This document shows positions 4,908 through 52,874 of a DNA stretch of 64,000 nucleotides, one piece after another. The notes under the pieces were generated by a model. That model saw nothing but the letters and a program-made list of their open reading frames with translations, did not search any database and was not told the origin of the DNA. How positions within the stretch are numbered: the stretch's first letter is position 1; each line of letters opens with the position of its first letter. Source of the DNA: Alphaproteobacteria bacterium (GTDB lineage: Bacteria; Pseudomonadota; Alphaproteobacteria; MPNO01); NCBI GenBank assembly GCA_965248835.1, contig CBDFLJ010000001.1, positions 1,504,001 through 1,568,000 of the forward strand, in the 5' to 3' direction. The position numbers were made by a program, and so were the translations under genes.

Positions 4908-5014
4908 CGCCGCCTCCTGATGCACCGATCGGTTCGCCGGCGGGGGAACTATAGCGCGGCCGCGCGCGCGATGGGATGGTTTGCCGGCCGGCCGGGGTCG
5001 AATATGCTTGTGCG

Positions 5015-6133
5015 ATGACCGCACCCGGACCACCGTTCCGCGCCGAACATGTCGGCAGCTTCGTCCGGCCTGACCGGCTGCTCGATGCCGTGCGCGCGCA
5101 CCGCGCCGGCACGATCGATGACGCCGCGCTCCGGGCCGTCCAGGACGATACCATCGCCGAGGTCGTCGCCTTCCAGGACGCGGTCGGCATGCCTTCGGTT
5201 ACCGACGGAGAGTTCCGCAGGCGTTCGTGGTCGGCGGGCGTGATCGATGCGCTGGACGGGCTGGGCCTGCGCGAAGAAGGGGTGTTGACGTTCAAGACCG
5301 CCTATTCCGACCTCGGCGTCGCGTCATCGCCCTATGCCGCGCGGCGGCTGTCGCGCCGCCGCCCGATCGTCGCAGACGACTACCGCTACCTGAAATCGCT
5401 CGCGCCGAAGGGCGTGCCGAAGGTGACCATGGCTTCGCCCCCGGTGCTGCACTTCTTCCTCGGACCGCGCAGCTTCGAGACCACGGCCTATCCCGACCGT
5501 GATGCGTTCTTCGCCGATCTGGCGCGGATCTACCGGCAGGAGATCGACGATCTCGCCGATGCAGGCTGCACCTATCTGCAGCTCGACGACACCGCCCTGC
5601 CGTGCAGTTGCGATGCGACCGCACGGGCCGGCGTGCGCGCCCGCGGCGAGGATCCCGATGGCCTGACCGAGGCTTACGTCAAGCTGATCAACGACGCGGT
5701 CGCCGGCCGACCCGACGGTATGACCGTCGCCGTTCACATGTGCCGCGGCAACCTCAAGGGCATGTGGATGGCCGAGGGCGGCTACGAGCCGATCGCCGAG
5801 CGGGTGCTGGGCGGGCTCGACGTCGACCTCTTCCTGATGGAATACGATACCGACCGGGCGGGCGATTTCTCGCCGCTGCGCCACTTGCCCGCCGGCAAGG
5901 TCGCTGTCCTCGGGCTGATCAGCACCAAGACGCCGGAACTGGAGTCGCGCGAAGACATCCTGCACCGGATCGACCTGGCCGCCCAGATGGTTCCGATCGA
6001 GCGTCTGGCGATCGGCCCGCAATGCGGGTTCGCCTCGGGCGGCGGCGGCGGTCAGGTCGTCGGCCACGACGACACGCGACGGAAGCTCGAGCTGGTCCTG
6101 GAGATCGCCCGCGAGGTCTGGGGCACCACGTGA
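5015..6133 (+). CDS. Cobalamin-independent methionine synthase II (MetE C-terminal-only) family Zn protein
   Basis: RAEHVGSF, TDGEFRR, LQLDD, HMCRGN, EYD and PQCGFAS (His/Cys/Glu/Cys Zn site). No N-terminal folate-binding half. Confidence 0.88.
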   Translation: MTAPGPPFRAEHVGSFVRPDRLLDAVRAHRAGTIDDAALRAVQDDTIAEVVAFQDAVGMPSVTDGEFRRRSWSAGVIDALDGLGLREEGVLTFKTAYSDLGVASSPYAARRLSRRRPIVADDYRYLKSLAPKGVPKVTMASPPVLHFFLGPRSFETTAYPDRDAFFADLARIYRQEIDDLADAGCTYLQLDDTALPCSCDATARAGVRARGEDPDGLTEAYVKLINDAVAGRPDGMTVAVHMCRGNLKGMWMAEGGYEPIAERVLGGLDVDLFLMEYDTDRAGDFSPLRHLPAGKVAVLGLISTKTPELESREDILHRIDLAAQMVPIERLAIGPQCGFASGGGGGQVVGHDDTRRKLELVLEIAREVWGTT

Positions 6134-6213
6134 GAGCTCCGGCCTTGATCGCCGGCCGGACCTGGGATTAGCTTGACGGGCCGCGCTCAGCAAGCGCGAA
6201 GCCGGGAGCCACC

Positions 6214-7386
6214 ATGGCAAACAGGACCAGCCAGGCCGACAGGGACAGAAGGTTCTACGCGCCCTATCTCGATGCGGCGTGGGGGCTCAAGAACCATTGG
6301 TATCCGGGCCTGTTCAGCCACGAGATCGCCGACGGCGAGGTCAAGGGCATCCAGATCGCCGGTGTGCCGATCCTGCTCAGGCGCGCCAAGGGCACGGTGC
6401 ACGCGCTGCTCGACCGCTGCGTCCATCGCGGGGTGAAGCTGTCGCTCCATCCGACCTGCCTGACCGAGGACACCGTGTCCTGCTGGTATCACGGCTTCAC
6501 CTACAACCTCGAGGACGGCGGCCTGGTCTCGATCGTGGCCGCGCCCGACGACGAGATCATCGGCAAGGTCAAGCTGCGCACCTTTCCGGTCCAGGAGTTC
6601 AAGGGCATCATCTTCGTCTTCGTCGGCGATGAAGGCTACGCGCCGGTCCCGCCGCTTTCCGATGACCTGCCGCCGGTCATTGCCGGGGACTACGAATGGC
6701 GCGCGGCCCACCCGCTGGACGAGGACGCGGCGATCCTCGGCATCCATCGCACCGGAAACGCCAACTGGCGGCTCGCGGTCGAGAACGGCTTCGATCCGGG
6801 CCATGTGCTGATCCACCGCGACAACATCCTGGTGCTCGCTTCCGGCCGTTCCCTGGCGCTGGGCTACAAGCCGGTCGATGACGGCGCCATCAAATCCTTC
6901 GAGGGCGACGGCCCCAAGGGTCTGATGAACATGTACGACACCGACAGCTACGAGCCGGTGGTCAAGAACGAGCGGCTCAACCTGACCAGTGCCGCGCGCA
7001 CCGAGTTCAAGTTCGTCGGCATCCGCACCTCGATGTTCCTGCCGGGCGTCTTGATGGTGGAGAACTTCCCCGAACGCGGGCTGGCGCAGTACGAATGGTA
7101 CGTCCCGATCGACGACGAGCGCCACGAGTACTGGCAGATTCTGGTGAAATGGTGTCCGGACGACGACGCGCTTGCCCAGTTCGAATACCGGTTCGAGCAC
7201 TATTACGAGTCGATCGTGCTGCGCGACTTCAACGACCGCGATCTCGATGCGCGCCAGGCGATGCAGCCGTTCTATGCCAATGGCGGCTGGCAGGAGGAAA
7301 ACCTGTGCAGCCTGGACTCGGTGATCGTCGGCTGGCGCAAGCTGGTCTCGCGCTACAACCGCGGCATCCAATCGCCGCAACCCTAG
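6214..7386 (+). CDS. oxoO: Rieske non-heme iron oxygenase, 2-oxo-1,2-dihydroquinoline 8-monooxygenase (OxoO)/CarAa family
   Basis: Rieske CVH...CWYH and mononuclear Fe motif ENGFDPGHVLIH. Segments PYLDAAWGLKNHWYP, GIQIAGVPI, LPGVLMVEN and QYEWYVPID match my recollection of OxoO better than CarAa. Confidence 0.8.
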   Translation: MANRTSQADRDRRFYAPYLDAAWGLKNHWYPGLFSHEIADGEVKGIQIAGVPILLRRAKGTVHALLDRCVHRGVKLSLHPTCLTEDTVSCWYHGFTYNLEDGGLVSIVAAPDDEIIGKVKLRTFPVQEFKGIIFVFVGDEGYAPVPPLSDDLPPVIAGDYEWRAAHPLDEDAAILGIHRTGNANWRLAVENGFDPGHVLIHRDNILVLASGRSLALGYKPVDDGAIKSFEGDGPKGLMNMYDTDSYEPVVKNERLNLTSAARTEFKFVGIRTSMFLPGVLMVENFPERGLAQYEWYVPIDDERHEYWQILVKWCPDDDALAQFEYRFEHYYESIVLRDFNDRDLDARQAMQPFYANGGWQEENLCSLDSVIVGWRKLVSRYNRGIQSPQP

Positions 7387-7389
7387 ACC

Positions 7390-8412
7390 ATGGCTGACAT
7401 CCGACTGGTCTTTCGCGACGGCCAAGAGCAACGGGTCTCTCCGGAGCCCGGCGAAACCGTGCTCCAGGCCGCGCTGCGCTGTGGCCTGGCGCTGGTTCAC
7501 CAGTGCGAATCGGGAAGCTGCGGGACCTGCATCGTCCGGCTGCTCGACGGCCAGACCGAAACCGTTCCCGGCCGCACGCTCGCGCTCCTGGACGGCGAGG
7601 TGCGCGACGGCTACCGCCTGGCTTGCTCGATCCGCCCGTTGGGCGCCTGCAGCTTCGGGCTCGATTATCCGGCGACCCTGCTCAGTGGACCGCAGCCGGC
7701 GGTCCGCAAGGCGAGGGTGGGGGCGCTCGACTGGGCCTCGCGCTCGGTGATCCGGCTCGACCTGGTGCTCGAGGACGCCGATGATTTCGCCTTCACCGCC
7801 GGCCAGTATGTCCGCATCCGGGTGCCCGGCACCGATCAGTGGCGGTCCTATTCGATGGCCAGCACGCCCGGCGATCTGCCGCGCATGAGCTTCCTGGTCC
7901 GCTATCTCGAAGGCGGCGCGATGTCGGGCTGGCTCGACGAGATCGCCGCGCCCGAAATGGAGATCGAGATCGACGGCCCGATGGGCTCCTTCGGTCTGGT
8001 GGAAAGCGAGGGCCCGATCCTGATGCTCGCAGGCGGGACCGGGCTCGCCCCGTTGCTTGCCATGCTCGATGCGCTGCGCGTCCGCCCGGGTCCGGCGCCT
8101 GACATCGTGCTCGGGTTCGGCTGCAACACCATCGAAGATCTGTTCTGCCTCGACGATCTCGAGCTGCGCGAATTCTGGATGCCGGGCCTGTCCTTGCGGA
8201 TCGCGGTCATGGCGGCGCCCGAAGGCGCGTTCGACGGACAGGTCGGCGATGCGGTCTCGCTGATCGAACCGGCGGATCTGGAGAAGCCGGGCCTTACGTC
8301 CTATCTTTGCGGGCCGCCGGGGATGATCGAGGCGGCGCGAAGCAGGCTGATCGACGGCGGGATCGCGCCGGAGCGCATCCGCAGCGAGCCGTTCCGCCCC
8401 AGCGAAGCCTAG
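7390..8412 (+). CDS. oxoR: [2Fe-2S]/FAD/NAD reductase component (OxoR-like)
   Basis: N-terminal CESGSCGTC...C ferredoxin, RSYS, GAMS, AGGTGLAP and YLCGPP. Starts 3 bp after the oxygenase. Confidence 0.8.
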   Translation: MADIRLVFRDGQEQRVSPEPGETVLQAALRCGLALVHQCESGSCGTCIVRLLDGQTETVPGRTLALLDGEVRDGYRLACSIRPLGACSFGLDYPATLLSGPQPAVRKARVGALDWASRSVIRLDLVLEDADDFAFTAGQYVRIRVPGTDQWRSYSMASTPGDLPRMSFLVRYLEGGAMSGWLDEIAAPEMEIEIDGPMGSFGLVESEGPILMLAGGTGLAPLLAMLDALRVRPGPAPDIVLGFGCNTIEDLFCLDDLELREFWMPGLSLRIAVMAAPEGAFDGQVGDAVSLIEPADLEKPGLTSYLCGPPGMIEAARSRLIDGGIAPERIRSEPFRPSEA

Positions 8413-8458
8413 AACATGATCCGAACATGCCCAGCCGGCCAGGAAGGGGACGCACGCA

Positions 8459-9790
8459 ATGGCACATCCCGGGCTTTCCGCCGAACAGAAGGAATGGTTC
8501 GACAAGGCCGATGCGCTGATCGACGAGGATCGGCTCCGCAGGTTCAACTTCGATTTGACCGCGATCCACTGCCCGACGGGGCGCGAGCGGGAAGCGAGCG
8601 AGTTCATGGTCCGGGCGCTCGCCGAGGCGGGGCTGGAGGCGTGGTACCAGCCGATGGGCGAGGAATCGGGCAACGCCGCGGCGCGGTTGAGGGGCAGCGG
8701 CGGAGGACCGAGCCTGCTGCTCTACGCGCCGATCGACACGCACCTTGAAGGCGATGCCGCAACCGACGTCCCATGGGTCGGCCCGCGTCTGCGCGCCGAC
8801 ATGGTGCCCGAGCCCGAGATCCGCGACGGGTTGGTCATCGGGCTCGGCGCGGCCAACCCCAAGGCCATGGTCACCACCCAGGTCGAGGCCGCGCGCGTGG
8901 TGCGTGCCGCCGACGTCCCGCTGAAGGGTGACCTGCTCGTGGCGTTTGCCGGCGGCGGCATGCCGGTCGACCTCGCCGGGCCCGGCAACCGCGGGCTCAG
9001 CGACGGCGTCTTCCACCTGCTGACCCGGGGGGTCTATGCCGATTTCGCGCTGGTGATGAAGCCGGGCAACGCGGTCTATTACGAGGAACCGGGCCTGTGC
9101 TGGTTCAAGGTCTCGGTCAAGGGGACGATGTGCTATGCTGGCATGACGCGCGGCATCCCCGGCTTCCGCAGCTCGATCGTGCCGGCGGCGACCGTGATTA
9201 CCGAGCTCGAGGCCTGGCTGCCGGAATATGCCGAGCGCAACAGCTCCGGCCAGATCATGCCCAATGGCTGGGTCGCCGGCGTCCAATCGGGCTGGCCCGA
9301 ACGGGTCGCCTTCCCCTCGGCGACGACCGAGATCTATCTCGACATCAGGTGCAGCCCGCGCACACCGCCGGCCGAGGTCGCCGCCCAGTTCGGCGAGGCG
9401 GTCGAAGCCATCCGCGCGCGCCACCCGGACTTCGAGCTCGATTGGGAAATGATCGCCTCGATCCCCGGTGCGAGCACCGATCCGGAGAACTGGATCATCC
9501 AATCCGCCACCCGGGCTTGGGAGACGATCGAGGGCAGACCGCACGAGCCGCCGCGCCGGACCGGGGGGCAGACCGACATCTCGACCATCCGCAATCTCGG
9601 CATCCCGACGGCGCGTACCGGTTGGCTCGCCATGCCCGAGACGGCGCCCGAAGAGCTCAAGGAAGGGCTCGGCGGCATGGGCGTCAGCAACCCGCCCGAC
9701 CTCGCCCACACCTGCCGCAAGCTGGTTTATTCGATCATCGACACCTGTATGCGCACCCGCGAGGAGGTCGGCTGCATCGGCCGGCCGTGA
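8459..9790 (+). CDS. M20/ArgE-fold protein with substituted metal ligands
   Basis: Colinear with ArgE/DapE (PTGRE, GNAAARLRGSGGGPSLLL, GLGAANPK, GGQTD), but the canonical H/D/EE/E/H ligands are absent. Confidence 0.8.
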   Translation: MAHPGLSAEQKEWFDKADALIDEDRLRRFNFDLTAIHCPTGREREASEFMVRALAEAGLEAWYQPMGEESGNAAARLRGSGGGPSLLLYAPIDTHLEGDAATDVPWVGPRLRADMVPEPEIRDGLVIGLGAANPKAMVTTQVEAARVVRAADVPLKGDLLVAFAGGGMPVDLAGPGNRGLSDGVFHLLTRGVYADFALVMKPGNAVYYEEPGLCWFKVSVKGTMCYAGMTRGIPGFRSSIVPAATVITELEAWLPEYAERNSSGQIMPNGWVAGVQSGWPERVAFPSATTEIYLDIRCSPRTPPAEVAAQFGEAVEAIRARHPDFELDWEMIASIPGASTDPENWIIQSATRAWETIEGRPHEPPRRTGGQTDISTIRNLGIPTARTGWLAMPETAPEELKEGLGGMGVSNPPDLAHTCRKLVYSIIDTCMRTREEVGCIGRP

Positions 9791-9796
9791 GCCGGA

Positions 9797-10864
9797 TCAG
9801 CCGGCCAGCCGGCGGATGATCCGGCGCATGGCAAGCAGACCGTCATCGGCATCGAGCGTGCCGCGCGGGTCGACGTCGCCCGGATTGCCCGCCGCGCCTG
9901 CCAGATCGACCGCCCGCTGCTGGGCCTCGTAGACCGCCAGATCCTCAGGCGGGATCGCCCGCATCTGCTGCTCGAAGACCGCGCGCCGGGCGTCCGGCAC
10001 CCACGCGGCGGGCAGCGAGACCGCCCAGAACTGCCGTGTCGTGCTCGGGCTGACCGGGGTCAGCGCGTGATAGACCACGAACCCCCACAGACCCTGGTCG
10101 TCGATCCAGCCCTCCGGGCCCGGTCCCGCGCCGGCCGCGCAAGAGCCGCTGTTGACGTAGATGTAGGACGGTGGGGTGTAGACGCTGGCCTGCCAGCGGT
10201 CGATGGTTCCGCCATAGCCGGCGTATTCGGTGAACGACGGGGCCGGCGGGATGTTGCTCATCCACCGCGTGACCGTCACGCAATCGCCCTCCACCGTGGT
10301 CGCGATGGACGCGGACTCGGCCAGTGCGCGGTTGCCGGTGGTGGAGGAATGGACGAACGCCAGATGCGACAGGTCGAGCAGGTTGTCGAGGATCAGCCGA
10401 TAGCCGCACCGGGCCTCGATCGTCCCGCTGTGGGTGATCCAGTCTTCGTCGACCAGCCGGGTCTGGAAGTCCGGGACCAAGGCAGGATCGACCCGGTCGG
10501 GATCGCCCATCCAGACGAACACCCAGCCGAGATTTTCCGCCGTCGGGTAGCTGCGGACCCGCGCCCAGCCGGGCACCGAATCCTGGCCCGGCACGTGCAC
10601 GCAGCGCCCGTCGCGGCCAAAGACCAGACCGTGATACCCGCATTCCAGCCGGTCGCCGTCGCGCCGTCCGGCCGACAGCGGCAGGTTGCGGTGCGCGCAG
10701 CGGTCCTCGAGGGCGACCACCGAGCCGTCCTCGGCACGGTACAGCGCCACCATCTCGTCCAGCATGACACGGCCGATCGGCGCGTGGCCGACCTCCTCGC
10801 TCCAGGCCGCGACGTACCACGCCTGGCGGATCAGCGTGCGCGGATCGAATTCGGTATCGGTCAT
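9797..10864 (-). CDS. Rieske oxygenase alpha subunit, VanA/O-demethylase-like
   Basis: AWYVAAW, DRCAHR, CGYHG, DNLLDLSHLAFVH and PEDLAVYEAQQ. Start at MTDTEF (10864). Confidence 0.88.
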   Translation of the reverse strand: MTDTEFDPRTLIRQAWYVAAWSEEVGHAPIGRVMLDEMVALYRAEDGSVVALEDRCAHRNLPLSAGRRDGDRLECGYHGLVFGRDGRCVHVPGQDSVPGWARVRSYPTAENLGWVFVWMGDPDRVDPALVPDFQTRLVDEDWITHSGTIEARCGYRLILDNLLDLSHLAFVHSSTTGNRALAESASIATTVEGDCVTVTRWMSNIPPAPSFTEYAGYGGTIDRWQASVYTPPSYIYVNSGSCAAGAGPGPEGWIDDQGLWGFVVYHALTPVSPSTTRQFWAVSLPAAWVPDARRAVFEQQMRAIPPEDLAVYEAQQRAVDLAGAAGNPGDVDPRGTLDADDGLLAMRRIIRRLAG

Positions 10865-10892
10865 CTCCCCCGCCGAGCTGCCCCGCTCCCGC

Positions 10893-11351
10893 CTATGATA
10901 GCCGCACTCTTGCGCCCAATTCTGCACAATCGGCATCGGTCTTCAGGCCGCAGGCGCGGATTCCGTACACCGCCAGCTCGTCGTCGCGTTCCTGGGCATC
11001 GCCGGTCACGCCGACTGCACCGATAACCTCTGCCCGGTCGTTGCGGATAAGCTGTCCACCGCCTTCGGGAAAGATCCGCTCGCCCGATGCCTTGATCAAA
11101 TAGTCCATGAACATCGGCCGCTCCTCGGCGCGAATGCGCACCAGGTTGGACGACCGTCCGAGCGCCAGCGCCGCATAGGCTTTGCCGTACGCCATCTCGA
11201 AGCGCAGCATGGCGCCGTGGTCCTCTTTCTGGAATGCCTTGAGGACTGCGCCCGGCTCGACCACCACCGCGGCCAGCGGCCGGCAGTCGAGCTCACGCCC
11301 GCGCGCGAAAATCCTGTCGATGACCGCGTTGGCCTGCTCGAGCGTGATCAT
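10893..11351 (-). CDS. GlcG/HbpS heme-binding family protein
   Basis: ITLEQA, AYGKAYAA, EGGGQLI and IGAVGVTG..DD motifs. Start uncertain (11351 or 11369). Confidence 0.85.
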   Translation of the reverse strand: MITLEQANAVIDRIFARGRELDCRPLAAVVVEPGAVLKAFQKEDHGAMLRFEMAYGKAYAALALGRSSNLVRIRAEERPMFMDYLIKASGERIFPEGGGQLIRNDRAEVIGAVGVTGDAQERDDELAVYGIRACGLKTDADCAELGARVRLS

Positions 11352-11369
11352 CGTCCATTGCCTGGGCAT

Positions 11370-15430: not shown

Positions 15431-17164
15431 TCAGTCGCGAGTGGCGGTGCCGTCGGGCAGGATGCGAACGCCGTAGTTGCTGAGCGCGCTCTCGCCGGAG
15501 ATGTAGCCGTGGCTGACGTCGCGCGCCACCGCCGCCGGCGGGCGCTCCAGCGGCACGCCGTAGCCGCCGCCGCCGCCGGCCTCGACGCACACGGCGTCGC
15601 CGGGCTCGAGCGGGACGGCGTCAGCCTTGTAATACGTCTCCGGTTCCGTGCCGGCCGCGCGCATCACCGAAACCCGGCCCGATTTCCCGTCTCTGCCGCC
15701 GAGAACGCCCCACGGCGGGCAGCCGATGCGGTCGAAGTTGACCCACAGCCTGCACGGCGCCAGCACGCGGTAGCGCTTGCGAAAACCCAGCCCGCCGCGC
15801 CACTTGCCCGCGCCGCCGGAATCCTCGCGCAGCGCGAGCTCCTCGTAGCGGAACGGGTACATCGATTCCTGAAGCTCCATCGGGATGATCCGCGAATCGC
15901 CGTGCGCCATGGTGCGGAACGGGCCGGAGCCGTCATGGGTCGCGCACGCACCCCAGCCGCCGTGGGCGGAATCGTAGCAGTCGAACCAGCTCCCGTCGGT
16001 GCGGTGACCGTAGATCCGAACCGAGGAATAGGTGCCGAAATGTGCACCCGTGACGGTCTCGGGAAGCGCCGGCGCCAGCGCCTTGATCAGCGTGTCGATG
16101 ATGGTCGGGAACGGGAACCCGTAATGACCCATCGGTGCCGTCGGCCGGGCGCTGACCAGCGTCCCGTCGGGCAGGATCAGCTTGAGCGGCCGGAAGGTCC
16201 CCTCGTTCGCCGGCTCGCCGCGGGCGATGAGGTACATGAACGCGACGCGGGCGGTGGTCACGCCGCCGCCGTGGCGCCCCGAATTGATCCGGCCCTCGAC
16301 CTGTTCGGGCATCTCGGAATAATCGACCGTCATCACCGAGCCCTCGACCACGACCCGGACCTTGATCGGGATGCGCTGTTCGCGCATGCCGTCGTTGTCG
16401 AGGAAGGACTCCGCTTCGTAGACGCCGTCCGGAATCGCCTCGATCCGCTTGCGGCTCGCCGCCTCGCACTGGTCAAGGATGATCTCAAGGGCCGCCCACC
16501 AGGTCTCCAGCCCGGCCTTCTCGGCCAACCCCCTGGTGAGGTCGCGCCCCATAAGGCAGCCGCCGAGCTGCGCCTCGATGTCGCCCAACAGCTCGGTCGG
16601 GAAACGGGTATTGCATTCGATGATGCGATAGACCTCCTCGATCGGCTCTCCGCGCGAATGGATCTTTACCGAGCGGTACTGAATGCCTTCCGCGAAGATG
16701 TCGCTCGCCCGGTAGGTGCCGACCTCGCCGCCGATGTCGATCCAGTGGCAGTTGATGGCGAAGAAGCCGATCAGCTCCTCTGCCGCACCGGCAAAGACCG
16801 GCGTGTACATGACGGTGTTGTTGAGATGCTGGCCCTGGACGGCGGCGTGGTTGCACAGAACGACGTCGCCCGGATGGAACCGCGCCTTGCCGTAGACCTG
16901 GAGCCCGTCGCGCACCGCGGCGCCCACCGCGTCGGCGACGAAGACCGGCATGCCGCCGTTGCATTGGGCGATCAGCCGACCGTCCGCGTCGGTCATGCCA
17001 ACCGCGTAGTCCTTGTACTCGTATATGTAGGGGCTGAAGGCGGTGCGGGTGATGTTGGCATCGATCTGGTCGTTGATCGAGATGATGCCGTGGCGGATGA
17101 CCTCCAAGGTGATCGGATCGACCGCACGGTTCTGCGTCGGGCCTGTGGTCTGCCTGGTCGCCAT
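15431..17164 (-). CDS. Hydantoinase B/oxoprolinase family subunit
   Basis: DPITLEVI, RTAFSPYIYE, HWIDIGG, DSGGAGKWRGG and GGGGYG. Start at MATRQ. Confidence 0.92.
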   Translation of the reverse strand: MATRQTTGPTQNRAVDPITLEVIRHGIISINDQIDANITRTAFSPYIYEYKDYAVGMTDADGRLIAQCNGGMPVFVADAVGAAVRDGLQVYGKARFHPGDVVLCNHAAVQGQHLNNTVMYTPVFAGAAEELIGFFAINCHWIDIGGEVGTYRASDIFAEGIQYRSVKIHSRGEPIEEVYRIIECNTRFPTELLGDIEAQLGGCLMGRDLTRGLAEKAGLETWWAALEIILDQCEAASRKRIEAIPDGVYEAESFLDNDGMREQRIPIKVRVVVEGSVMTVDYSEMPEQVEGRINSGRHGGGVTTARVAFMYLIARGEPANEGTFRPLKLILPDGTLVSARPTAPMGHYGFPFPTIIDTLIKALAPALPETVTGAHFGTYSSVRIYGHRTDGSWFDCYDSAHGGWGACATHDGSGPFRTMAHGDSRIIPMELQESMYPFRYEELALREDSGGAGKWRGGLGFRKRYRVLAPCRLWVNFDRIGCPPWGVLGGRDGKSGRVSVMRAAGTEPETYYKADAVPLEPGDAVCVEAGGGGGYGVPLERPPAAVARDVSHGYISGESALSNYGVRILPDGTATRD

Positions 17165-17169
17165 GTTGC

Positions 17170-19218
17170 CTACCCCGCCCCGCAGGTGATGCGGATCTCG
17201 TGGAACGGACCGATCTCGAAGCTGTCGCCGGGCCAGACCGCGGTGGTCGCGCCGTATTCCTCGATGATCGCCGGTCCGGCGCCGCGGAAGCCGGAGGCCA
17301 GATCGTAGCGGTCGAAGATCGCGGTCTCGACCCACCCGGCCTCGCGCGAGAACAGAACCGGGCGGGTGCGCCGGCCGCCGCCGCCCGCGGCGCGATGGAG
17401 CCCGGCGAGCTGCGGCCGTCGCAGCCGCGCGAAGGCCGAAAGGTGAAGCGCCTGGATCTCTGCGGCGGCACGCCGGTCGGCATGGCCGTAGCGGCGCTCA
17501 TAATCACGGTCGAAGGTCGCGCGGATGGCGTCCGGCCCGTCGAGCCCGGGCAGCGGCACCTTGATGTTGTGGCGCTGGCCGCGATATCGCATCTCGGCCG
17601 CGCGCTCGAAATAGATTTCCGTCACGCCGACCTCCTCGCGCAGGACCATCCCGGCGTCGCGCTCCATCTGTTCGAACAGCCCGGCCATCCCCGCGACCGT
17701 CGTGTGTTCGAGCGCGCCGGTGAAGGTCCGCGCGATGTCCATGCGCGCATCGGCCAGCATCATGCCGGTGGCCGAGAAATTTCCGGGCTCCGGCGGGATG
17801 ATCACCGTCGGGATCGACAATTCGCGGGCAAGGGCTGCGGCATGCAGCGGCCCGGCGCCGCCGTAGCTGAACAGGACGAAGTCACGCGGGTCGCGGCCGT
17901 GCTCGACGGTCTGGCGGCGTATGGCGCCGGCCATCACCACGGTCGCGATCGAAAGGATGCCCTCGGCAAGCGCGACCGCGCCGTCTTCGCCGGCAAAGCC
18001 CAGCCGGCCGGCGATGCCTTCCAGAAGCGCGGCTCGGGCGGCCTCGGCATCGAGCAGCAGCTCGCCGCCGAGGAACCGGTCCGGCGCCAGGCGGCCCAAC
18101 AACAGGTTGGCATCGGTTACCGTCGGCTCGGTGCCGCCGCCGCCGTAGCAGACCGGGCCCGGGTTGGAGCCGGCCGAGCGCGGGCCGACATGCAGCCGCG
18201 CCTGGTCGTCGAGCCAGGCGATCGAGCCGCCGCCCGAGCCCACCTCGATGATGTCGATCACCGGTGCCTTGATCGGGAAGCCTTGAACGTATCCGCCGGC
18301 GTAATAGGTCGAGTTCACCGCGTAGCGGCCGGCCTCGACGAGGGCGCACTTGGCCGTCGTGCCCCCCATGTCGAACGCGATAACGTTGTCCAGGCCGAGC
18401 GAATCGGCGTAGGCGGCGGTGCCGATGCAGCCGCCGATCGGGCCCGACTCGACCAAGGCGATGGGCTCGCGGCGGGCGCGCTCGGCCGACAGCACGCCGC
18501 CGTTCGAGCCCATCATGAACAGCGGTCCGGAGAACCCGCCCCCGCGCAGCTCGTCCTCGAGCCGGCCCAGATAGCCCGAGACCTGAGGGCCGACATAGGC
18601 GTTGGCCGCCGCCGTCGCGGTGCGCTCGTATTCGTACCACTCCCGGCACAGCGCCGCGCCGGAGCAGACATAAATGTCCGGCAGAAGCCCGCGCAGCACG
18701 GCGACCGCGCGCTCCTCGTGGACCGGGTTGGCGTAGGCATTGAGGAACGAGACCGCGACCGCCTCGACGTCCTGTCGGGCCATCGCCTCGGCGGTTGCGG
18801 CGAGCTCGTCCTCGGCCAACGGTAAGACGATCTCGCCTCCGGTCCCGATGCGCTCGGTGACCTCGAAACGCCTGTCGCGCGGAATCAGAGGCGCATCGCG
18901 CCGATAGTAGAGGTCGAACGGGTCCGGCCGGTTGCCGCGCGCGATCTCCAGCACGTCGCGGAAGCCCCGCGTGGTGACCAGCGCGGCGCGGCTTCCCCGG
19001 CGCTGGATGAGCGCATTGATGACCAGTGTGGTGCCGTGGTTGACCAGGCTCGCCTCCGCCGATGCGATGCCGGCCTTGGCGAGGCAGGCGAGGATGCCGT
19101 CGACGAAATTCCCGTAGGTCGTCGCGCTCTTGGCGTAGAGCACGTTCGCGGTCTCGCGGTCGAGGGCGACCAGATCGGTGAACGTCCCTCCGATGTCGAT
19201 GGCGAGCGCATAGCGCAT
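17170..19218 (-). CDS. Hydantoinase A/oxoprolinase family ATP-binding subunit
   Basis: IDIGGTFTD, HGTT, ESGP, DMGGTT, SAGSNPGP and GGAGPLH. Start at MRYAL. Confidence 0.92.
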   Translation of the reverse strand: MRYALAIDIGGTFTDLVALDRETANVLYAKSATTYGNFVDGILACLAKAGIASAEASLVNHGTTLVINALIQRRGSRAALVTTRGFRDVLEIARGNRPDPFDLYYRRDAPLIPRDRRFEVTERIGTGGEIVLPLAEDELAATAEAMARQDVEAVAVSFLNAYANPVHEERAVAVLRGLLPDIYVCSGAALCREWYEYERTATAAANAYVGPQVSGYLGRLEDELRGGGFSGPLFMMGSNGGVLSAERARREPIALVESGPIGGCIGTAAYADSLGLDNVIAFDMGGTTAKCALVEAGRYAVNSTYYAGGYVQGFPIKAPVIDIIEVGSGGGSIAWLDDQARLHVGPRSAGSNPGPVCYGGGGTEPTVTDANLLLGRLAPDRFLGGELLLDAEAARAALLEGIAGRLGFAGEDGAVALAEGILSIATVVMAGAIRRQTVEHGRDPRDFVLFSYGGAGPLHAAALARELSIPTVIIPPEPGNFSATGMMLADARMDIARTFTGALEHTTVAGMAGLFEQMERDAGMVLREEVGVTEIYFERAAEMRYRGQRHNIKVPLPGLDGPDAIRATFDRDYERRYGHADRRAAAEIQALHLSAFARLRRPQLAGLHRAAGGGGRRTRPVLFSREAGWVETAIFDRYDLASGFRGAGPAIIEEYGATTAVWPGDSFEIGPFHEIRITCGAG

Positions 19219-19333
19219 CCGGCGAATTCCAGTCTCCGTACTGCCGGGCGATGTTAGTGGACGCGTGCAGGGCGTTCTAGCGCCGCGCTGCGGCCCGCCG
19301 TTATGATCGAGTCCGGCACGGTGCGCAGGAGCT

Positions 19334-21115
19334 ATGGGACGGCCGATGGCAAACGGGAAGCATGCAACGGGCCGGTTGACCGATCCGGTGGTTACCGAAC
19401 TGGTCCGCAACGGGGTCATGGCGGTGACCGAGGAGATGAAGACCAATCTCACGCGCACCGCCTACAACATGATCATCTACGAGGCGCTCGACTTCACCGT
19501 CGGGCTGTTCACCGCAGACGGCGAGACCGTCTCGATCGGGCTCGGCCTGCCGATGTTCATCCGCGGCATGGCCGCGACCTTGAAGGCCAAGCTGGAGCAT
19601 TTCGGACCCGACGGAATCGAGCCCGGCGACATCCTGGTCACCAACGATGCCTACATCACCGGAAGCCATCTCAACCACGTCACCCTGAGCCAGCCGATCT
19701 TCCACGGCGGCAAGCTGGTCGCGTTCGCCTGCTGCATGGCGCATTGGCTGGATATCGGCGGGGTGCTCGGCGGGATTACCACCGACATCTATTCGGAGGG
19801 GCTGCAGATCCCGGTCCTGAAGCTTCAGAAGGCCGGCAGGATCAACCAGGACCTCGTGGACGTGATCAAGATGAACGTCCACATCCCCGACCGGGCGATG
19901 GGCGATCTGCGGGCACAGCTCACCGCGGTGAAGACCGGCGAGCGGCGCTTCACCGAGCTGCTCGACCGCTACGGTTGCGACGAGGTCCTGGCGGCGATCG
20001 CCGACATCATGGACCATTCCGAGCAGGCGGCGCGGGCGCGCACCGCCTCGATCCCCGACGGCGTCTACGAGGCCGAATCCTTCATGGACGATGACGGCAT
20101 CGACATCGGCAAGCCCATCCCGATCCGGGTCCGGGTGAGCGTCCAGGGCGAGGCGATGACCGTCGACCTGTCGGAGATTTCCGCGCAGGTGCGCGGCTTC
20201 TATAACTCCGGCATCACCACCGGGCATGCCTGCGCGCAGGTCGCCTACAAGTGCATCACCTCGCCCACCGACTACCCGATCAACGACGGCAGCCTGCGCC
20301 CGCTGAAGGTGGTCGTCCCGCCGGGCCGGGTGGTCAGCGCGACCAAGCCGGCGCCCATGCGGGTCTGGATGACGATCCCCATGACGGTCATCGACACCGT
20401 CTTCAAGGCGCTTGCACCGGCGATCCCCGACCGGGTGATCGCCGGCCATCACGCCGATCTCGGAGTCGCCGGCTTCCACGGCATCGCGCCGAAGGAACGG
20501 CGCCTGTTCATCGGCTCGAGCGGGCCGCTCGGCGGCGGCTGGGGGGCCAAGCACAACCAGGACGGCGTCTCCGCCACCGTCTGTCTGAACGACGGCGATA
20601 CCCACAACACGCCGGTCGAGCTGACCGAGAACCGCTACCCGATGATGATCGACCGCCACGGCCTGGTCCCCGATTCCTGCGGCGCCGGACGCCAGCGTGG
20701 CGGGCTCGGCATCGAGTACGCGGTCACCGCCCTGTCGCCGTTCAACCTGACGACCCGCACCGAGCGCGCGCATTGCAGGCCCTGGGGTCTGCATGGCGGG
20801 CTCGAAGCCTCGGGCAACGACGTCGCGCTGCGGCTCGACGGGGCGTGGAAGGACGATCTCGCCAACGCCAAGGTGCTGGCGGTGAACCTGCAGGAGGGCG
20901 ACGGCTATCGCCTGCGCTCGGGCGGCGGCGGCGGGTTCGGCGCGCCGCACGACCGGCCGGCCGAGGCGGTGCTGGAGGACGTCCGGCAAGGCTATGTCTC
21001 GCTCGCCGCCGCAGGCGAGCTCTACGGCGTGGTCATCGATCCGGCACGGATGGAGGTCGACGCCGCTGCGACCGAGCGCGCCCGGGCGGTCCCCGGCACG
21101 CCGCCCGACCGCTAG
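19334..21115 (+). CDS. Hydantoinase B/oxoprolinase family subunit with no co-oriented A partner
   Basis: DPVVTELVRN, RTAYNMIIYE, HWLDIGG, DSCGAGRQRGG and GGGGFG. Start 19334 or 19346. Confidence 0.92.
   Translation: MGRPMANGKHATGRLTDPVVTELVRNGVMAVTEEMKTNLTRTAYNMIIYEALDFTVGLFTADGETVSIGLGLPMFIRGMAATLKAKLEHFGPDGIEPGDILVTNDAYITGSHLNHVTLSQPIFHGGKLVAFACCMAHWLDIGGVLGGITTDIYSEGLQIPVLKLQKAGRINQDLVDVIKMNVHIPDRAMGDLRAQLTAVKTGERRFTELLDRYGCDEVLAAIADIMDHSEQAARARTASIPDGVYEAESFMDDDGIDIGKPIPIRVRVSVQGEAMTVDLSEISAQVRGFYNSGITTGHACAQVAYKCITSPTDYPINDGSLRPLKVVVPPGRVVSATKPAPMRVWMTIPMTVIDTVFKALAPAIPDRVIAGHHADLGVAGFHGIAPKERRLFIGSSGPLGGGWGAKHNQDGVSATVCLNDGDTHNTPVELTENRYPMMIDRHGLVPDSCGAGRQRGGLGIEYAVTALSPFNLTTRTERAHCRPWGLHGGLEASGNDVALRLDGAWKDDLANAKVLAVNLQEGDGYRLRSGGGGGFGAPHDRPAEAVLEDVRQGYVSLAAAGELYGVVIDPARMEVDAAATERARAVPGTPPDR
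19529..19574. repeat. 46-bp exact match, inverted, to 45270-45315 inside paralogous hydantoinase B genes
   Basis: GTCTCGATCGGGCTCGGCCTGCCGATGTTCATCCGCGGCATGGCCG is the reverse complement of 45270-45315. Confidence 0.8.
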
Positions 21116-23103
21116 CAATCGTCGCGGCGGAAGACGAAGTTGGTGTACTCGTCGACATCGAGCCGCCAGCCCGGCGCGACGGCATAGGACGTATCGGGTC
21201 CGTCGACCATCGCCGGTCCGCCGACCGACTGGCCCGGCAGCAGCGTTGCGCGCGCGTAGACCGGGGTGCGCAGCCGCCCCGCGGCGGCCCAACGTATGGG
21301 CCGCCTGCCCTGCGGCCGCGGCGCTTTGCGGGCCCGTGTCGTGGCCTTGACCGGGACCCAGTGCGAGACCTCGCACTCGGCCGACAGGCGGATGGCGTGG
21401 ATCCGGCCCCGCTCGCCCGCCGCCTCAGCGGCCTTGGAAACGGTCCCCGTCTTGCCGCGAACCGGCAGGGTGCGCAGTTTCTTGCCCACCGCGATATCGA
21501 CCTCGGCGATGGACTTGATCTCGCTCGCGGCGAAACCCTCGCTGCGCATGTCGGCCTCGGCCTGTTCGCGAAACGCGGCGAGGACCGCGTCGGCCTCGGC
21601 GATGCGGCTGGCCGCGATGCCGAGCGTCCGCGCATAGGCGTGGCGCACGTTGGTCGTGCTCGAGCCGAAGGCGCTGAACACCGAGCCGTAGGGAAAGGCG
21701 TAGACCTTGTCGACGCCGAGCTGGTCGGCCACCGCGCAGGCGTGCAGCGGCCCGCTGCCGCCGAACGAGAACAGCGTGAACCCCGCCGGGTCGCGGCCTG
21801 CCGCCTCCAGCCGGGTGCGGATCTCGTTGGCCATCTGGCGGTCGACCGCCTCGCGGACGGCAAGCGCCGCGTCCTCGCTGCCGATGCCCAGCGGGCGCGC
21901 GATGCGCCGGTCCATGGCGCGCTCGGCCAGCGCGGTCTCCAACCGCATGCGCCCGCCGAGGAAGCCCTCCGGATCGATATAGCCGAGCAGCAGGTTCGCG
22001 TCGGTCACGGTCGGCTCCATGCCGCCCTTGGCATAGCACGCCGGCCCGGGCGCCGCGCCGGCGCTTTCCGGCCCGACCCGCAACCGGCTGCCGGTGACCG
22101 TGGCGATGCTGCCGCCCCCGGCACCCAGGGATTCGACCTCGATCATCGGGGTGGCCAGCGGAATCCCCTCGATCCTCGGCGCCGTGCTGAGTGAGGCAGC
22201 CGCGTTCTCGATTACCGCGATGTCGAGGCTGGTGCCGCCCATGTCGGTGGTCACCACCCGGTCGAGCTTGAGCCGGCCGGCGAGATAGGCCGCACCGCGC
22301 GTGGCCACCGCCGGACCGGAATGCAGCGTGTTCAGAGCCACCGTCTTCGCGACCCGCGCATTGCCCCCGCTCGCGTGCACGACCAGCAGCGGGCGGTCGT
22401 AGCCGGCTTCGCGCAGCTTGTCCTCGGCACGGTAGAGCGTGCGCGCCATCGTCGCGTGGATATAGGCGTTCAGCACCAGCGAATTGGTCCGGCCGTGGTC
22501 GTCGGCGACGTGGATCACCTCGGTGCCGATCTGCAGCGGGACCGAGCGCAGGTAATGGATCGGATAGCGCTCCCGGATCAGGTCGCGGGCCGCAATCTCG
22601 TTCGCGGCGTTGCGCCAGGCGTTGCGGAAGCTGATGCCGATCATTCGCACGCCCTCGGCGAGGAGGTGCCGGACGGCTTCGCGCAGCCGGTCGGCATCGA
22701 CCGGCTTGCGCAGGCGGCCGCGGTCGTCGACCGTCTCCTCGACCCCCACCACCAGGTCGGCGGCGACAAACCGGTCGAGGATCCCGGCCCTCGGGGCCTT
22801 GCCGTAGAGCGTGGACTCGCAGCCCGCGGTGACGATCAGCCCGAGCCGCGGCCCGGCGCGCTGGACCAGGAGGTTGGTGCCCACCGTGGTCGAGACCCGC
22901 GCGACATCGGTGCGCCGCAGGAAGGATTCGAGGTCCATCGCGAAGGCCCGGCTGCCCGCCTCGACGCAGCTCATGAAGCATTCGGTGATGTCGTGCGGCG
23001 TGGTCAGGACTTTTTCGGTCTTGACCCGGGTTCCATCGCAGAAGAACCCGTCGGTGAACGTTCCCCCGATATCGATATCGATGCTGTACACTCCGGACCT
23101 CAC
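21112..23103 (-). CDS. apcA: Acetophenone carboxylase ApcA-like subunit (hydantoinase A family)
   Basis: YSIDIDIGGTFTD, TTPHD, ESTLYG, YPIHYLRSVPL, LYRAEDKLR and ARVAKT match my recollection of ApcA. True start may be GTG 23091. Confidence 0.72.
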   Translation of the reverse strand: MRSGVYSIDIDIGGTFTDGFFCDGTRVKTEKVLTTPHDITECFMSCVEAGSRAFAMDLESFLRRTDVARVSTTVGTNLLVQRAGPRLGLIVTAGCESTLYGKAPRAGILDRFVAADLVVGVEETVDDRGRLRKPVDADRLREAVRHLLAEGVRMIGISFRNAWRNAANEIAARDLIRERYPIHYLRSVPLQIGTEVIHVADDHGRTNSLVLNAYIHATMARTLYRAEDKLREAGYDRPLLVVHASGGNARVAKTVALNTLHSGPAVATRGAAYLAGRLKLDRVVTTDMGGTSLDIAVIENAAASLSTAPRIEGIPLATPMIEVESLGAGGGSIATVTGSRLRVGPESAGAAPGPACYAKGGMEPTVTDANLLLGYIDPEGFLGGRMRLETALAERAMDRRIARPLGIGSEDAALAVREAVDRQMANEIRTRLEAAGRDPAGFTLFSFGGSGPLHACAVADQLGVDKVYAFPYGSVFSAFGSSTTNVRHAYARTLGIAASRIAEADAVLAAFREQAEADMRSEGFAASEIKSIAEVDIAVGKKLRTLPVRGKTGTVSKAAEAAGERGRIHAIRLSAECEVSHWVPVKATTRARKAPRPQGRRPIRWAAAGRLRTPVYARATLLPGQSVGGPAMVDGPDTSYAVAPGWRLDVDEYTNFVFRRDDC

Positions 23104-23106
23104 CCC

Positions 23107-23976
23107 TTATCCGACGACAATGTTGCGCACGCGCAGGATGGTCTCCGCCGCGGTCTCCGCCGGGATCTCCCACGCCGAAAGGAACAGCCGCACCGTATCG
23201 GGCAGCCCGCGTTTCCAATCCGCGCCGAAATCGCCGTCTGCGGCAAACGCCCCGAGCGGAATGGCCGCGACCAACCCGTCGGCATCGCCCGGACCGACCG
23301 CCCAGCGCGCACCGGCGCCGCGCGCGGCTTCGCCGGCCTGCGCGGACAGCGCGGTGCGCGAAAGATAGAGCACCGGGACCTGGTAGTAGGCCGCCAGATT
23401 GAAAGCCGCATCGAATTGGCCGAATAGCGCCGGTTCGGGCGGCTCGTCTTCCAAGAGCATGATCGCCGCCACGCCGGCGCCGCACAGCAGGTCGACCATT
23501 TTCGACGAAAGCTGGGCGGCTGCCGCAACCGGCGCGTGTCCGCGCGCGGTGCCGTAGAGCCGTTTCAGCAGCGTCGCCGGCGCGGTCATCGTGCCGACCA
23601 CCGAGACGCCGTCGGCCATCTCTTCGCGCGCCCGCCTGGTCAGCGCCGCGGTCACCGCCACGGGCGTTGCATCGATGACCGCTGCCGGATCGACCGGCGC
23701 GGTGAGCGGGTCGGCAGGCCGGCTCACGCTCCCGTCCCCGGCCCGCGCCAGCGTTCGGCCGGCGGCCTCGGCCTCGGCCCATGTATCGAAGGCCACAGCG
23801 ATCGCATCGGCCTGCAGCACCTCTTGCGCCGAACGCAGGCTGAAGCTCGCCAGGGCCGGATCGGCCATGAACGCGGCATGGTCGAGCTGCTCCAGCCGCA
23901 AGACGACGCCGAGCCCCAGCGGGGCGAATAGCGGCGTCGGGGCACCCTCGAGTCGGCGGTCGAGCGGCGTTGCCAT
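23107..23976 (-). CDS. apcE: Acetophenone carboxylase ApcE-like subunit (UROD/MtaA-like fold)
   Basis: 289 aa. PLFAPL...LEQL...FMADP, AEAEAAG, MTAPATLL, LCGAGV and NLAAYYQVP. TGATG overlap with apcD-like. Size and position fit ApcE. Confidence 0.62.
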   Translation of the reverse strand: MATPLDRRLEGAPTPLFAPLGLGVVLRLEQLDHAAFMADPALASFSLRSAQEVLQADAIAVAFDTWAEAEAAGRTLARAGDGSVSRPADPLTAPVDPAAVIDATPVAVTAALTRRAREEMADGVSVVGTMTAPATLLKRLYGTARGHAPVAAAAQLSSKMVDLLCGAGVAAIMLLEDEPPEPALFGQFDAAFNLAAYYQVPVLYLSRTALSAQAGEAARGAGARWAVGPGDADGLVAAIPLGAFAADGDFGADWKRGLPDTVRLFLSAWEIPAETAAETILRVRNIVVG

Positions 23977-26111: not shown

Positions 26112-26118
26112 GCCGTCC

Positions 26119-28248: not shown

Positions 28249-28652
28249 CGCTTCGCCGCCTTCGCGTTCGCCTTTGTCCCGGCTTTTGTCTTCGGCTTGG
28301 CCGGGGCCTTGCGCCGGCGCGACCTTATGCCGTGCTTTTGCTTCAGCTTGTCGAGATCGAGCTGGATGTCCCAGGTCAGCGGATGGCCCGGCGGCAGATA
28401 CTCGTTCTCGACCATGACCGCACAGCCCGGACAATAGAACTCGACGATCCGCATCCATTCCGGATCGAATGAAAAGTTGAATTCCTTGCTCGGCCCGATC
28501 GGGAAATGGATCTCCCGCGGGTCGCGTTCGCGGACCAGGCAGCCCCTCTTGTAGGATTCGCGCGCATCGCCGAGGTCGTGATCGCACCGGTTGCAGCACC
28601 ACCGCTCGGCCTCGAGATCGATGTCGAGATACTCGGTGATCCTCACCCGCAT
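28245..28652 (-). CDS. apcB: Acetophenone/acetone carboxylase small Zn-binding subunit (ApcB/AcxC family)
   Basis: RITEYLDIDL, CNRC, ARESYKRGCLV, EFYCPGC and EYLPPGHP. Two CxxC pairs. Confidence 0.85.
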   Translation of the reverse strand: MRVRITEYLDIDLEAERWCCNRCDHDLGDARESYKRGCLVRERDPREIHFPIGPSKEFNFSFDPEWMRIVEFYCPGCAVMVENEYLPPGHPLTWDIQLDLDKLKQKHGIRSRRRKAPAKPKTKAGTKANAKAAKR

Positions 28653-35129: not shown

Positions 35130-35137
35130 GGTGGGTC

Positions 35138-52872: not shown

Positions 52873-52874
52873 TC

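Follow-up and report, generated by a model that had tools for sequence, protein, structure and literature searches.

A ligand-less M20-fold protein partnered with OxoO/CarAa-type Rieske oxygenases, a candidate for nitrogen removal in quinoline-type breakdown

Gene content of the locus

We analyzed a 64,000-nucleotide stretch of DNA (hereafter, the window) from Alphaproteobacteria bacterium (assembly GCA_965248835.1, contig CBDFLJ010000001.1, positions 1,504,001 to 1,568,000 of the forward strand), which is part of a 4.89-Mb, two-contig genome most closely related, within the genome collection, to metagenome-assembled genomes (MAGs) labelled Rhodospirillaceae, Defluviicoccus or Alphaproteobacteria. 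Our subject (hereafter also the query) is an open and intact open reading frame (ORF) at positions 8459-9790 of the forward strand of the window, coding for a 443-aa protein with the fold of the M20 hydrolases and without their canonical metal ligands. It is the fourth and last of four co-oriented genes, which are as follows:

4976-6133, forward strand: MetE-like protein (cobalamin-independent methionine-synthase-like; NCBIfam PRK06520, 355.7 bits), which heads the oxygenase gene string
6214-7386, forward strand: OxoO/CarAa-type homotrimeric Rieske oxygenase of 390 aa (PF11723, 252.7 bits, and a Rieske domain)
7390-8412, forward strand: Fer2-FAD-NAD reductase of the BenC/OxoR type in a single protein (Pfam Fer2, FAD_binding_6 and NAD_binding_1)
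8459-9790, forward strand: M20-fold, NaaA-like protein of 443 aa without canonical metal ligands (PF01546, AlphaFold2 and Foldseek)

The Rieske gene lies on the same strand as the M20-like gene, 1.07 kb upstream of it, and its product matches OxoO of Pseudomonas putida 86 (PDB 1z01) with 429 bits (E 1.4e-127) and the carbazole dioxygenase CarAa with about 305-315 bits. The reductase scores 218 bits with the BenC model of NCBIfam, which is under the cut-off of that model, and 147.7 bits with PDB 1krh. An earlier note, made by a reader of the bare sequence, had put the M20-like gene directly behind oxoOR; given the OxoO match and the BenC-type reductase upstream, the label is a fair one if worded as OxoOR-like. 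The M20-like ORF starts 46 nt past the reductase stop, and direct reading of the sequence reveals a Shine-Dalgarno-like element, AGGAAGGGG at 8441-8449, 9 nt 5' of its ATG at 8459. Terminator-like sites were sought across 4976-9790 and none was found. The coding signal of the ORF, measured as the difference in GC content between third and second codon positions (GC3-GC2), is 0.36 and within the range of the neighboring genes (0.34-0.49), which bears out the description of the ORF in the earlier note as full length and normal in codon usage.

Downstream, a gene for a VanA-type Rieske oxygenase (PF19112) at 9797-10936 of the reverse strand is convergent with the M20-like gene, the two being 6 nt apart, and overlaps by 44 nt with the preceding same-strand gene for an HbpS-like protein (10893-11369, PF03928). 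A second VanA-type gene is found in the window at 41854-42957 of the forward strand.

Fold and closest relatives of the M20-like protein

The AlphaFold2 model of the M20-like protein (pLDDT 90.8, pTM 0.90) displays the two-domain M20 fold, with a catalytic α/β domain and a lid domain. The protein barely passes the cut-off of the Pfam M20 model (PF01546, 27.4 vs 24.6 bits), and all nine of its NCBIfam matches, which are of the ArgE/DapE type, are far under their cut-offs (e.g., TIGR01910, 50.9 vs 217.6 bits). The top 10 structures retrieved with Foldseek are all chains of NaaA (5k8o, 5k8n, 5k8p and 5k8m), with TM scores of 0.78-0.83 and E-values of about 2e-34, and comparisons with canonical M20 enzymes (DapE, ArgE, CPG2 and 3pfo) gave TM scores of 0.56-0.73. 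NaaA, the 5-nitroanthranilate aminohydrolase (5NAA-A) of Bradyrhizobium sp. JS329 (5K8M/N/O/P), is the best match of the query in sequence as well as in fold: phmmer aligns the two with an E-value of 1.7e-19 at 22-23% identity, and a profile built from 31 representatives of the wider family (alignment A2, see below) matches NaaA over its full length with 322 bits. The look-alikes found in the ESM Atlas belong to generic "M20 family" clusters only.

NaaA is a hydrolytic aryl deaminase that converts an aryl amino group to a hydroxyl, as described in passages of PMC9814641 and PMC10306065. The titles of its PDB entries indicate that it uses Mn2+/Zn2+ and that Arg289 was mutated in the intermediate-trapping structure 5K8P. 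Common to NaaA and the query are the two-domain M20 architecture, an Asn at the position of the bridging metal ligand, the NxK motif, the absence of the C-terminal His and the DIR motif of the lid; NaaA is, according to the same passages, a C-N hydrolase of aromatic catabolism. Canonical M20 enzymes (ArgE, DapE, CPG2, PepT and the putative deacetylase 3PFO) have the same overall fold as the query but possess five metal ligands and a general-base Glu, all of which are replaced in the query, and the context of ArgE and DapE is arginine or lysine synthesis, whereas that of the query is aromatic catabolism. As aligned, the query thus departs from the canonical M20 enzymes at every residue that defines them and from NaaA at three residues specific to the latter, while its predicted fold and ancestry are common to both.

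Conserved replacement of the metal ligands

A word-indexed search scored 8000 candidates, of which 963 are homologues at E<=1e-3. Of these, the best 120 are 57-98% identical to the query, come from several phyla (Alphaproteobacteria, Binataceae, Dehalococcoidia, KSB1, Myxococcales and others) and go in their sources by no other names than M20 metallopeptidase or acetylornithine-deacetylase-like; if the reading as a C-N hydrolase given below holds, the current annotation as "M20 family metallopeptidase" or "acetylornithine deacetylase-like" is almost certainly misleading. An exhaustive search yielded 1105 representatives of 50%-identity clusters at E<=1e-3, of which 114 reach E<=1e-30. From such sequences we assembled alignments of different depth: A3, with 129 sequences (the query, 114 full-length members of the 120 listed homologues after exclusion of six fragments, and 14 divergent representatives; 31-98% identical); A2, with 31 representatives 23-53% identical to the query; A5, with 17 sequences of a deeper ligand-less subfamily about 41% identical to the query; and A8, with control proteins from ligand-retaining relatives. 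The features at and around the old metal site, as read from the translation and the alignments, are as follows:

8726-8743, forward strand: A90-P91-I92-D93-T94-H95 in place of GHxDxV, with the His ligand replaced by Pro91
8840-8863, forward strand: G128-LGAAN133-P-K135 in place of GxGxxDMK, with the bridging Asp replaced by Asn133
8951-8959, forward strand: G165-G166-G167 in place of the DEE/TEE triplet, which holds the pair of general-base and ligand Glu
9056-9064, forward strand: M200-K201-P202 in place of GEP, with the Glu ligand replaced by Lys201
9083-9088, forward strand: acidic pair E209-E210, restricted to the ligand-less clade (conservation of at least 90% in A3)
9134-9136, forward strand: Tyr226 of the lid (dimerisation) domain, invariant in A3 and A5
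9341-9349, forward strand: lid-domain motif D295-I-R297, with D295 and R297 invariant in A3, A5 and A8
9566-9577, forward strand: G370-Q371-T372-D373, the M20 "GxTD" motif, kept (conservation in A3)

HMMER alignments place Pro91 opposite the His of 3pfo and His86 of NaaA, Asn133 opposite the Asp of 3pfo and Asn124 of NaaA, Lys201 opposite the Glu of 3pfo and Glu196 of NaaA, and Gly167 opposite Glu158 of NaaA; residue numbers of NaaA are our own count on the query-NaaA alignment, and the role of His86, Glu158 and Glu196 as ligands is deduced from that of their M20 equivalents. The position of the gap around the GGG/EEE triplet is ambiguous in the HMMER alignment with 3pfo, and the GGG assignment rests on the alignment with NaaA, which is clear at this loop, and on A2, where the ligand-retaining relatives, like the control proteins of A8, have GE at the position of Gly166-Gly167. 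At the site of the C-terminal ligand His, the query has GLGGMGVSNPPD where 3pfo shows GPHAFDE, the family profile is likewise without a His, and His417, which is near this site, is unconserved. Retained from the canonical M20 pattern are the N-terminal SPTGxE motif, the Asp of the HxD motif, the GxTD motif and the motifs of the lid. The substitutions described in the earlier note (APIDTH, GLGAANPK, GGG and MKP, with the C-terminal His missing) are all present in the translation, and HMMER supports most of them.

The replacing residues are themselves under strong conservation. Asp93, Asn133, Lys201, Tyr226, Asp295 and Arg297 are invariant in A3, as is Gly370 of the GxTD motif, and Pro91, His95, Lys135, Gly166, Gly167, Glu209, Glu210, Gln371, Thr372 and Asp373 are at least 90% conserved. 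Asn133 is further invariant in a separate alignment of the M20-like protein (A1), in all 31 sequences of A2, in A5 and in A8. Lys201 is invariant in the matching column of A5, and this column has Glu in 6 and Asp in 4 of 10 control proteins. The other residues invariant in A5 are Asn133, the equivalent of Glu210, Tyr226, Asp295 and Arg297, while the position of the His ligand varies between Pro, Gln, His, Gly and Glu and His95 is unconserved. Hence, of the new Lys, Asn and His that the earlier note had placed in the pocket, Lys201 and Asn133 hold throughout and His95 drops out in the deeper subfamily. The E209-E210 pair is missing from the NaaA-like sequences of A2. The DIR motif, in contrast to features specific to the ligand-less clade, is found at the same place in NaaA and is common to the ligand-retaining relatives, and Asp373 is invariant in A8. 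Tyr226 may be the counterpart of the lid-domain His of DapE. The earlier note had allowed for a gene in decay; since the substituted residues are kept across the 129 sequences of A3, the gene is not decaying.

The 31 representatives of A2 split cleanly into 16 with the pattern GH.DT / NMK / GE / E, which are NaaA-like, and 15 with mostly Pro / NPK / GG / Lys. Because the bridging Asn and the missing C-terminal His are common to NaaA, only three of the losses are specific to the clade of the query, which the alignments identify as His to Pro, Glu to Gly and Glu to Lys; the two others of the five are older losses, common to a working metalloenzyme. By the same alignments, the clade of the query is large and strongly conserved, and is sister to the NaaA-type M20 branch. 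We picture a history in which the NaaA-like branch would first have exchanged the bridging Asp for Asn and lost the C-terminal His, and the clade of the query would then have changed His/Glu/Glu to Pro/Gly/Lys, a change that would coincide with a fixed gene partnership with homotrimeric Rieske oxygenases of the OxoO/CarAa type.

Two paralogues from the genome of the query add to this picture. One (L083; G000:C2:2070590-2071864; 1498-2844 of its locus, reverse strand) is 41% identical to the query and ligand-less, with the motifs FAPLDS / NPK / GAGG / AKPG, and has a PF11723 Rieske gene on one side and an amidase-signature gene on the other. The other (L084; G000:C2:2415485-2416795) is 37% identical, keeps the His (YGHLDT) with the Gly and Lys present, and is flanked by LigB-like and Amidohydro_2 genes; from its motifs it looks like an evolutionary intermediate.

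Linkage of the ligand-less clade to Rieske oxygenases

To define the neighborhoods of the clade, we used a first set of 349 pattern-matched stretches (one genome per species), 335 of which encode relatives; the best 80 were kept and joined with three loci found earlier, two of which had been recovered again, to give 81 loci. A Rieske homologue was detected with tblastn in 68 of the 81, at an identity of at least 45% in 51 and of 31-41% in 17, and in 4 of the 13 loci without a match the sequence ends just upstream of the M20 gene. A reductase homologue is present in 40 of the 81 loci, and a MetE-like homologue in just one, for which reason the MetE-like gene at 4976-6133 was rejected as a member of the module. 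The second subfamily, that of the paralogue L083 (about 41% identical), was collected with a 6-sequence alignment (A6), giving 249 stretches of which 199 encode relatives and 80 were kept. Here, Rieske genes were scanned for with a codon-degenerate DNA motif for the CxYHG(W/F) site, which was found in 67 of the 80 loci, mostly ~250 nt after or ~1.1 kb before the M20 gene. The same motif occurs in none of 80 control loci with 5-kb flanks of the same kind around genes for ligand-retaining "NMK" relatives, of which ten were translated and all ten keep the His, NMK and GE. The DNA motif under-counts Rieske genes: of the 81 first-set loci it marks 44, and tblastn 68. Thus, a Rieske neighbor is nearly always present in the clade of the query, unlike in its ligand-retaining, NaaA-like relatives (67/80 vs 0/80), and ligand loss and the Rieske partnership go together. 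The linkage to oxoO anticipated in the earlier note is hence confirmed in both sets and specific to the ligand-less clade, which leads us to view the query, on the strength of its alignments and neighborhoods, as a ligand-less, Rieske-partnered offshoot of the NaaA-type M20 hydrolases.

The module is found in Actinomycetota, Burkholderiales, Alphaproteobacteria, Binataceae and Chloroflexota. Binataceae, Paraburkholderia and the window show either Rieske-reductase-M20 or Rieske-M20 as the order of genes. In the clusters of Rhodococcus, Prescottella, Nocardia, Gordonia and Mycolicibacterium, a MarR gene of the opposite strand is followed by genes for the Rieske oxygenase, its reductase, a BphC-type extradiol dioxygenase, an Amidase, the M20-like protein, a protein of the Asp/Glu-racemase family, an α/β-hydrolase and a flavin monooxygenase, as judged from Pfam domains of cluster representatives, and loci of the Defluviicoccus type combine a LigB-type dioxygenase, a Rieske oxygenase, an α/β-hydrolase and two divergent M20-like paralogues. 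Across the 81 loci, the companion genes code for amidases (PF01425, 19 loci), BphC-type extradiol dioxygenases (19), LigB-type dioxygenases (9), α/β-hydrolases (29) and proteins of the Asp/Glu-racemase family (8); as gene orders were derived with our own GC3-based ORF caller and clustering, and the M20 gene itself was missed in ~10 of the 81 loci, these counts are lower bounds.

Several loci display variations of this arrangement. In four Defluviicoccus-type MAG loci (L002, L007, L009 and L011; ~6500-9330), the M20-like paralogues are back to back and may represent a heteromeric form. In ten Binataceae-type MAG loci (L017-L022, L025, L029, L033 and L050), a Rieske-M20 pair without an adjacent reductase is preceded by genes for a luciferase-like monooxygenase, an Amidohydro_3 protein and a TPP enzyme and followed by one for an aquaporin (MIP), a context unlike quinoline degradation. 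In PLSDB, a homologue was found on one plasmid, the 1.19-Mb replicon p1 of Cupriavidus necator C39 (L088; NZ_CP068436.1, 1181093-1182391; 55% identity), with a Rieske motif ~2.1 kb upstream; the PLSDB table lists no genes at this place.

Relation to quinoline and carbazole catabolism

The closest characterized parallel to the oxygenase part of the module is OxoOR, the 2-oxo-1,2-dihydroquinoline 8-monooxygenase of P. putida 86, which it resembles in having a close OxoO homologue and a one-protein Fer2/FAD/NAD reductase. It differs from the quinoline route in that no Qor-type quinoline 2-oxidoreductase is found beside the module of the window, and from the 8-hydroxycoumarin pathway of P. putida 86 in its spread across uncultured soil, lake and marine lineages with varied contexts. 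The carbazole car operon, with CarAa, the LigB-type CarB and the α/β-hydrolase CarC, is a second parallel: the Rieske oxygenase of the query module matches CarAa, and the Defluviicoccus-type loci bring together LigB-type dioxygenase, Rieske, α/β-hydrolase and M20-like genes. To our knowledge, car operons have not been described with an M20-like gene.

The quinoline route is of particular relevance for its nitrogen-removing step. Passages of PMC9029321 describe the conversion of quinoline by Rhodococcus gordoniae JH145 via 2,8-dihydroxyquinoline to 8-hydroxycoumarin and NH4+ and leave the enzyme of this step unnamed, and R. gordoniae DSM 44689 has the cluster with the ligand-less M20 gene (locus L047). 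In the literature searched, which left subscription journals mostly outside, no enzyme is named for the step from 8-hydroxy-2-oxoquinoline to 8-hydroxycoumarin, and neither the M20/Rieske/amidase cluster nor the ligand-less clade is described.

The window itself was considered as a quinoline island and rejected as such. Its sole Mo-hydroxylase, encoded at 51536-55175 of the forward strand with FAD, 2Fe-2S and MoCo subunits, is 43 kb from the module, and its large subunit is closer to 4-hydroxybenzoyl-CoA reductase (329 bits) than to Qor (215 bits). Given the wide range of bacteria and gene contexts in which the pair is found, the substrates probably extend beyond quinoline to a wider class of lactams or arylamines.

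A predicted C-N hydrolase and the alternatives to it

The constancy of the Rieske oxygenase, the recurrent amidase, extradiol dioxygenase and hydrolase companions and the C-N chemistry of NaaA together suggest a scheme for the function of the clade. We tentatively favor the reading that the M20-like protein is a functional C-N hydrolase, either a deaminase or a lactam opener, which would act after the hydroxylation of a 2-quinolone-type ring and without the canonical metal centre; NaaA, the nearest characterized relative, deaminates aromatics hydrolytically, in keeping with a role in nitrogen removal. A bolder version of it, possible but doubtful, is that of a metal-free M20-fold catalyst with Lys201 in the stead of the metal-binding Glu, which co-evolved with OxoO/CarAa-type Rieske oxygenases and carries out nitrogen removal on the 8-hydroxycoumarin route by lactam opening and/or hydrolytic aryl deamination.

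In the proposed scheme, the two-component oxygenase would hydroxylate a 2-quinolone-type N-heteroaromatic lactam at a position adjacent to its nitrogen, as OxoO does, and the M20-like protein would then hydrolyze a C-N bond of the product, either opening the lactam or, like NaaA, exchanging an aryl amino group for a hydroxyl. Lactam opening and replacement of the amine might come in either order, and could be divided between the M20-like protein and the amidase-signature enzyme encoded alongside in many genomes. The nitrogen would leave as NH3 and the product would be cis-2,3-dihydroxycinnamate or a catechol acid of the 8-hydroxycoumarin type, which could then undergo extradiol ring cleavage and hydrolysis. 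The cis side chain would give rise to maleate, and this, we suggest, would account for the gene of the Asp/Glu-racemase family (potentially maleate-isomerase-like) in the actinobacterial clusters. In the predicted pocket, Lys201, which takes the place of the Glu ligand in the sequence, would supply the positive charge formerly provided by the metal, Glu209/Glu210 would be the base, and hydrogen bonds would be donated by Tyr226 and Asn133; Lys201 together with Asn133, Glu209/Glu210, Tyr226 and Arg297 would polarize the substrate and activate a water molecule. The conservation of Arg297 and Asp295 across the NaaA-like branch suggests a substrate bearing a carboxylate, and an o-aminophenol or a vinylogous acid should need less activation than 5-nitroanthranilate. 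If true, the clade would offer candidate enzymes for a step missing from the textbooks on bacterial quinoline degradation, the loss of nitrogen from 8-hydroxy-2-quinolone, and would be a natural case of a metallohydrolase fold that has shed its metal centre yet is under strong selection. It would also constitute a widespread two- or three-gene module (Rieske, reductase and ligand-less M20) in soil, freshwater and marine bacteria of the Binataceae, Chloroflexota/SAR202, Alphaproteobacteria, Actinomycetota and Burkholderiales, with cultured hosts in Rhodococcus, Prescottella, Nocardia and Paraburkholderia. From its sequence relations and neighborhoods, we regard the M20-like protein as a good candidate for removing the nitrogen in quinoline-type breakdown, a step so far unassigned.

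Several points weigh against this proposal. NaaA keeps His86, Glu158 and Glu196 where the query has Pro91, Gly167 and Lys201, and Arg289 of NaaA is opposite Ala284 of the query, in an unconserved Ala/Ser column; with both the ligands and this Arg missing from the clade, the notion that it works like NaaA is weakly grounded at the residue level. Passages of PMC9814641 further describe Mn2+ or Zn2+ and the nitro group of the substrate as needed for the chemistry of NaaA. Lys201 and the other residues are assigned to the pocket from sequence alignment only, and a quinolone as substrate is a guess by analogy with OxoO. The 64-kb window holds no clear Qor, no amidase-signature gene adjoins the module, and in Binataceae and other lineages the module is found among unrelated genes (for a TPP enzyme, Amidohydro_3, an aquaporin and a CoA-transferase). 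The literature searched describes no characterized homologue of the ligand-less clade.

An unlikely alternative is that hydrolase activity was lost altogether and that the protein binds, sequesters or scaffolds, for instance by holding the substrate or a reactive product of the oxygenase or by serving the homotrimeric Rieske enzyme as accessory subunit or effector. Non-catalytic partners of this kind have analogies in NdmE of the caffeine demethylase NdmCDE and in AbgA of AbgAB. The disappearance of all five canonical ligands along with the counterpart of NaaA Arg289 would be expected of such a protein, as would the coincidence of ligand loss with Rieske pairing (67/80 vs 0/80 control loci) and the fact that the Rieske oxygenase is the only universally conserved neighbor, with often nothing else in common between loci; the two divergent side-by-side paralogues of the Defluviicoccus-type loci would fit a heteromer. 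However, a set of polar and charged residues is kept at the old active-site positions (N133, K135, K201, E209/E210, Y226, D295, R297 and GQTD), and conservation of this kind across subfamilies of ~40% identity would be more usual in a catalytic site that was remodelled than in a pocket that only binds. The frequent amidase, extradiol dioxygenase and hydrolase neighbors, moreover, fit a pathway enzyme, and the solved PF11723 oxygenases, OxoO and CarAa, are named in their PDB titles as oxygenase components without such a subunit. Predictions of a complex between the Rieske oxygenase (alignment A4) and the M20-like protein (A1) gave run scores of 0.00, 0.45 and 0.00 and were not used as evidence for or against.

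Improbable too is a protein that is still a metalloenzyme, with a site rebuilt from Asp93, His95, Glu209/Glu210, Asn133 or a carbamylated Lys201 and with the ordinary amide hydrolysis of M20 enzymes (as a deacylase or aryl-acylamidase), e.g., in the opening of a lactam. Other hydrolase families employ carbamylated lysines as general bases or to ligate metals, Asp93 is invariant, and the clade-specific E209/E210 pair appears together with the change of Glu to Lys; NaaA, the closest relative, itself binds Mn2+/Zn2+ with a reduced ligand set, according to PDB titles and passages of PMC9814641. On the other hand, the variation of His95 in the deeper subfamily leaves mainly carboxylates and an Asn around a Lys, which would be an unusual Zn site, and Gly166-Gly167 remove both side chains of the former Glu pair with no nearby replacement visible in the alignment. 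As for a pseudogenised M20 peptidase or a chance ORF behind the oxygenase genes, the loss of every canonical ligand and the weak scores with curated models (TIGR01910, 50.9 vs 217.6) might be read that way, but the full-length ORF with its Shine-Dalgarno-like site, normal coding signal and confident fold prediction, together with homologues 57-98% identical in several phyla and the invariance of the substituted residues themselves, makes its likelihood negligible, and conservation refutes it.

Other genes of the window

Elsewhere, the window contains paired hydantoinase/oxoprolinase genes and genes for a creatinase/M24 protein, for VanA-like oxygenases and for β-oxidation. Four hydantoinase/oxoprolinase A+B pairs (PF01968/PF05378 with PF02538) are found at 15431-19458, 19334-23103, 23976-28602 and 43714-47561; such a concentration of ATP-dependent lactam- or ketone-opening enzymes, four pairs within 32 kb, is unusual and may be of relevance to lactam catabolism. 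In the middle of the window, the reverse strand features genes for an arylsulfotransferase (PF05935, 28790-30337), a TctA transporter (31552-33531) and a protein of the RPE65/carotenoid-oxygenase family (33612-35525), which fit a generally aromatic-catabolic region.

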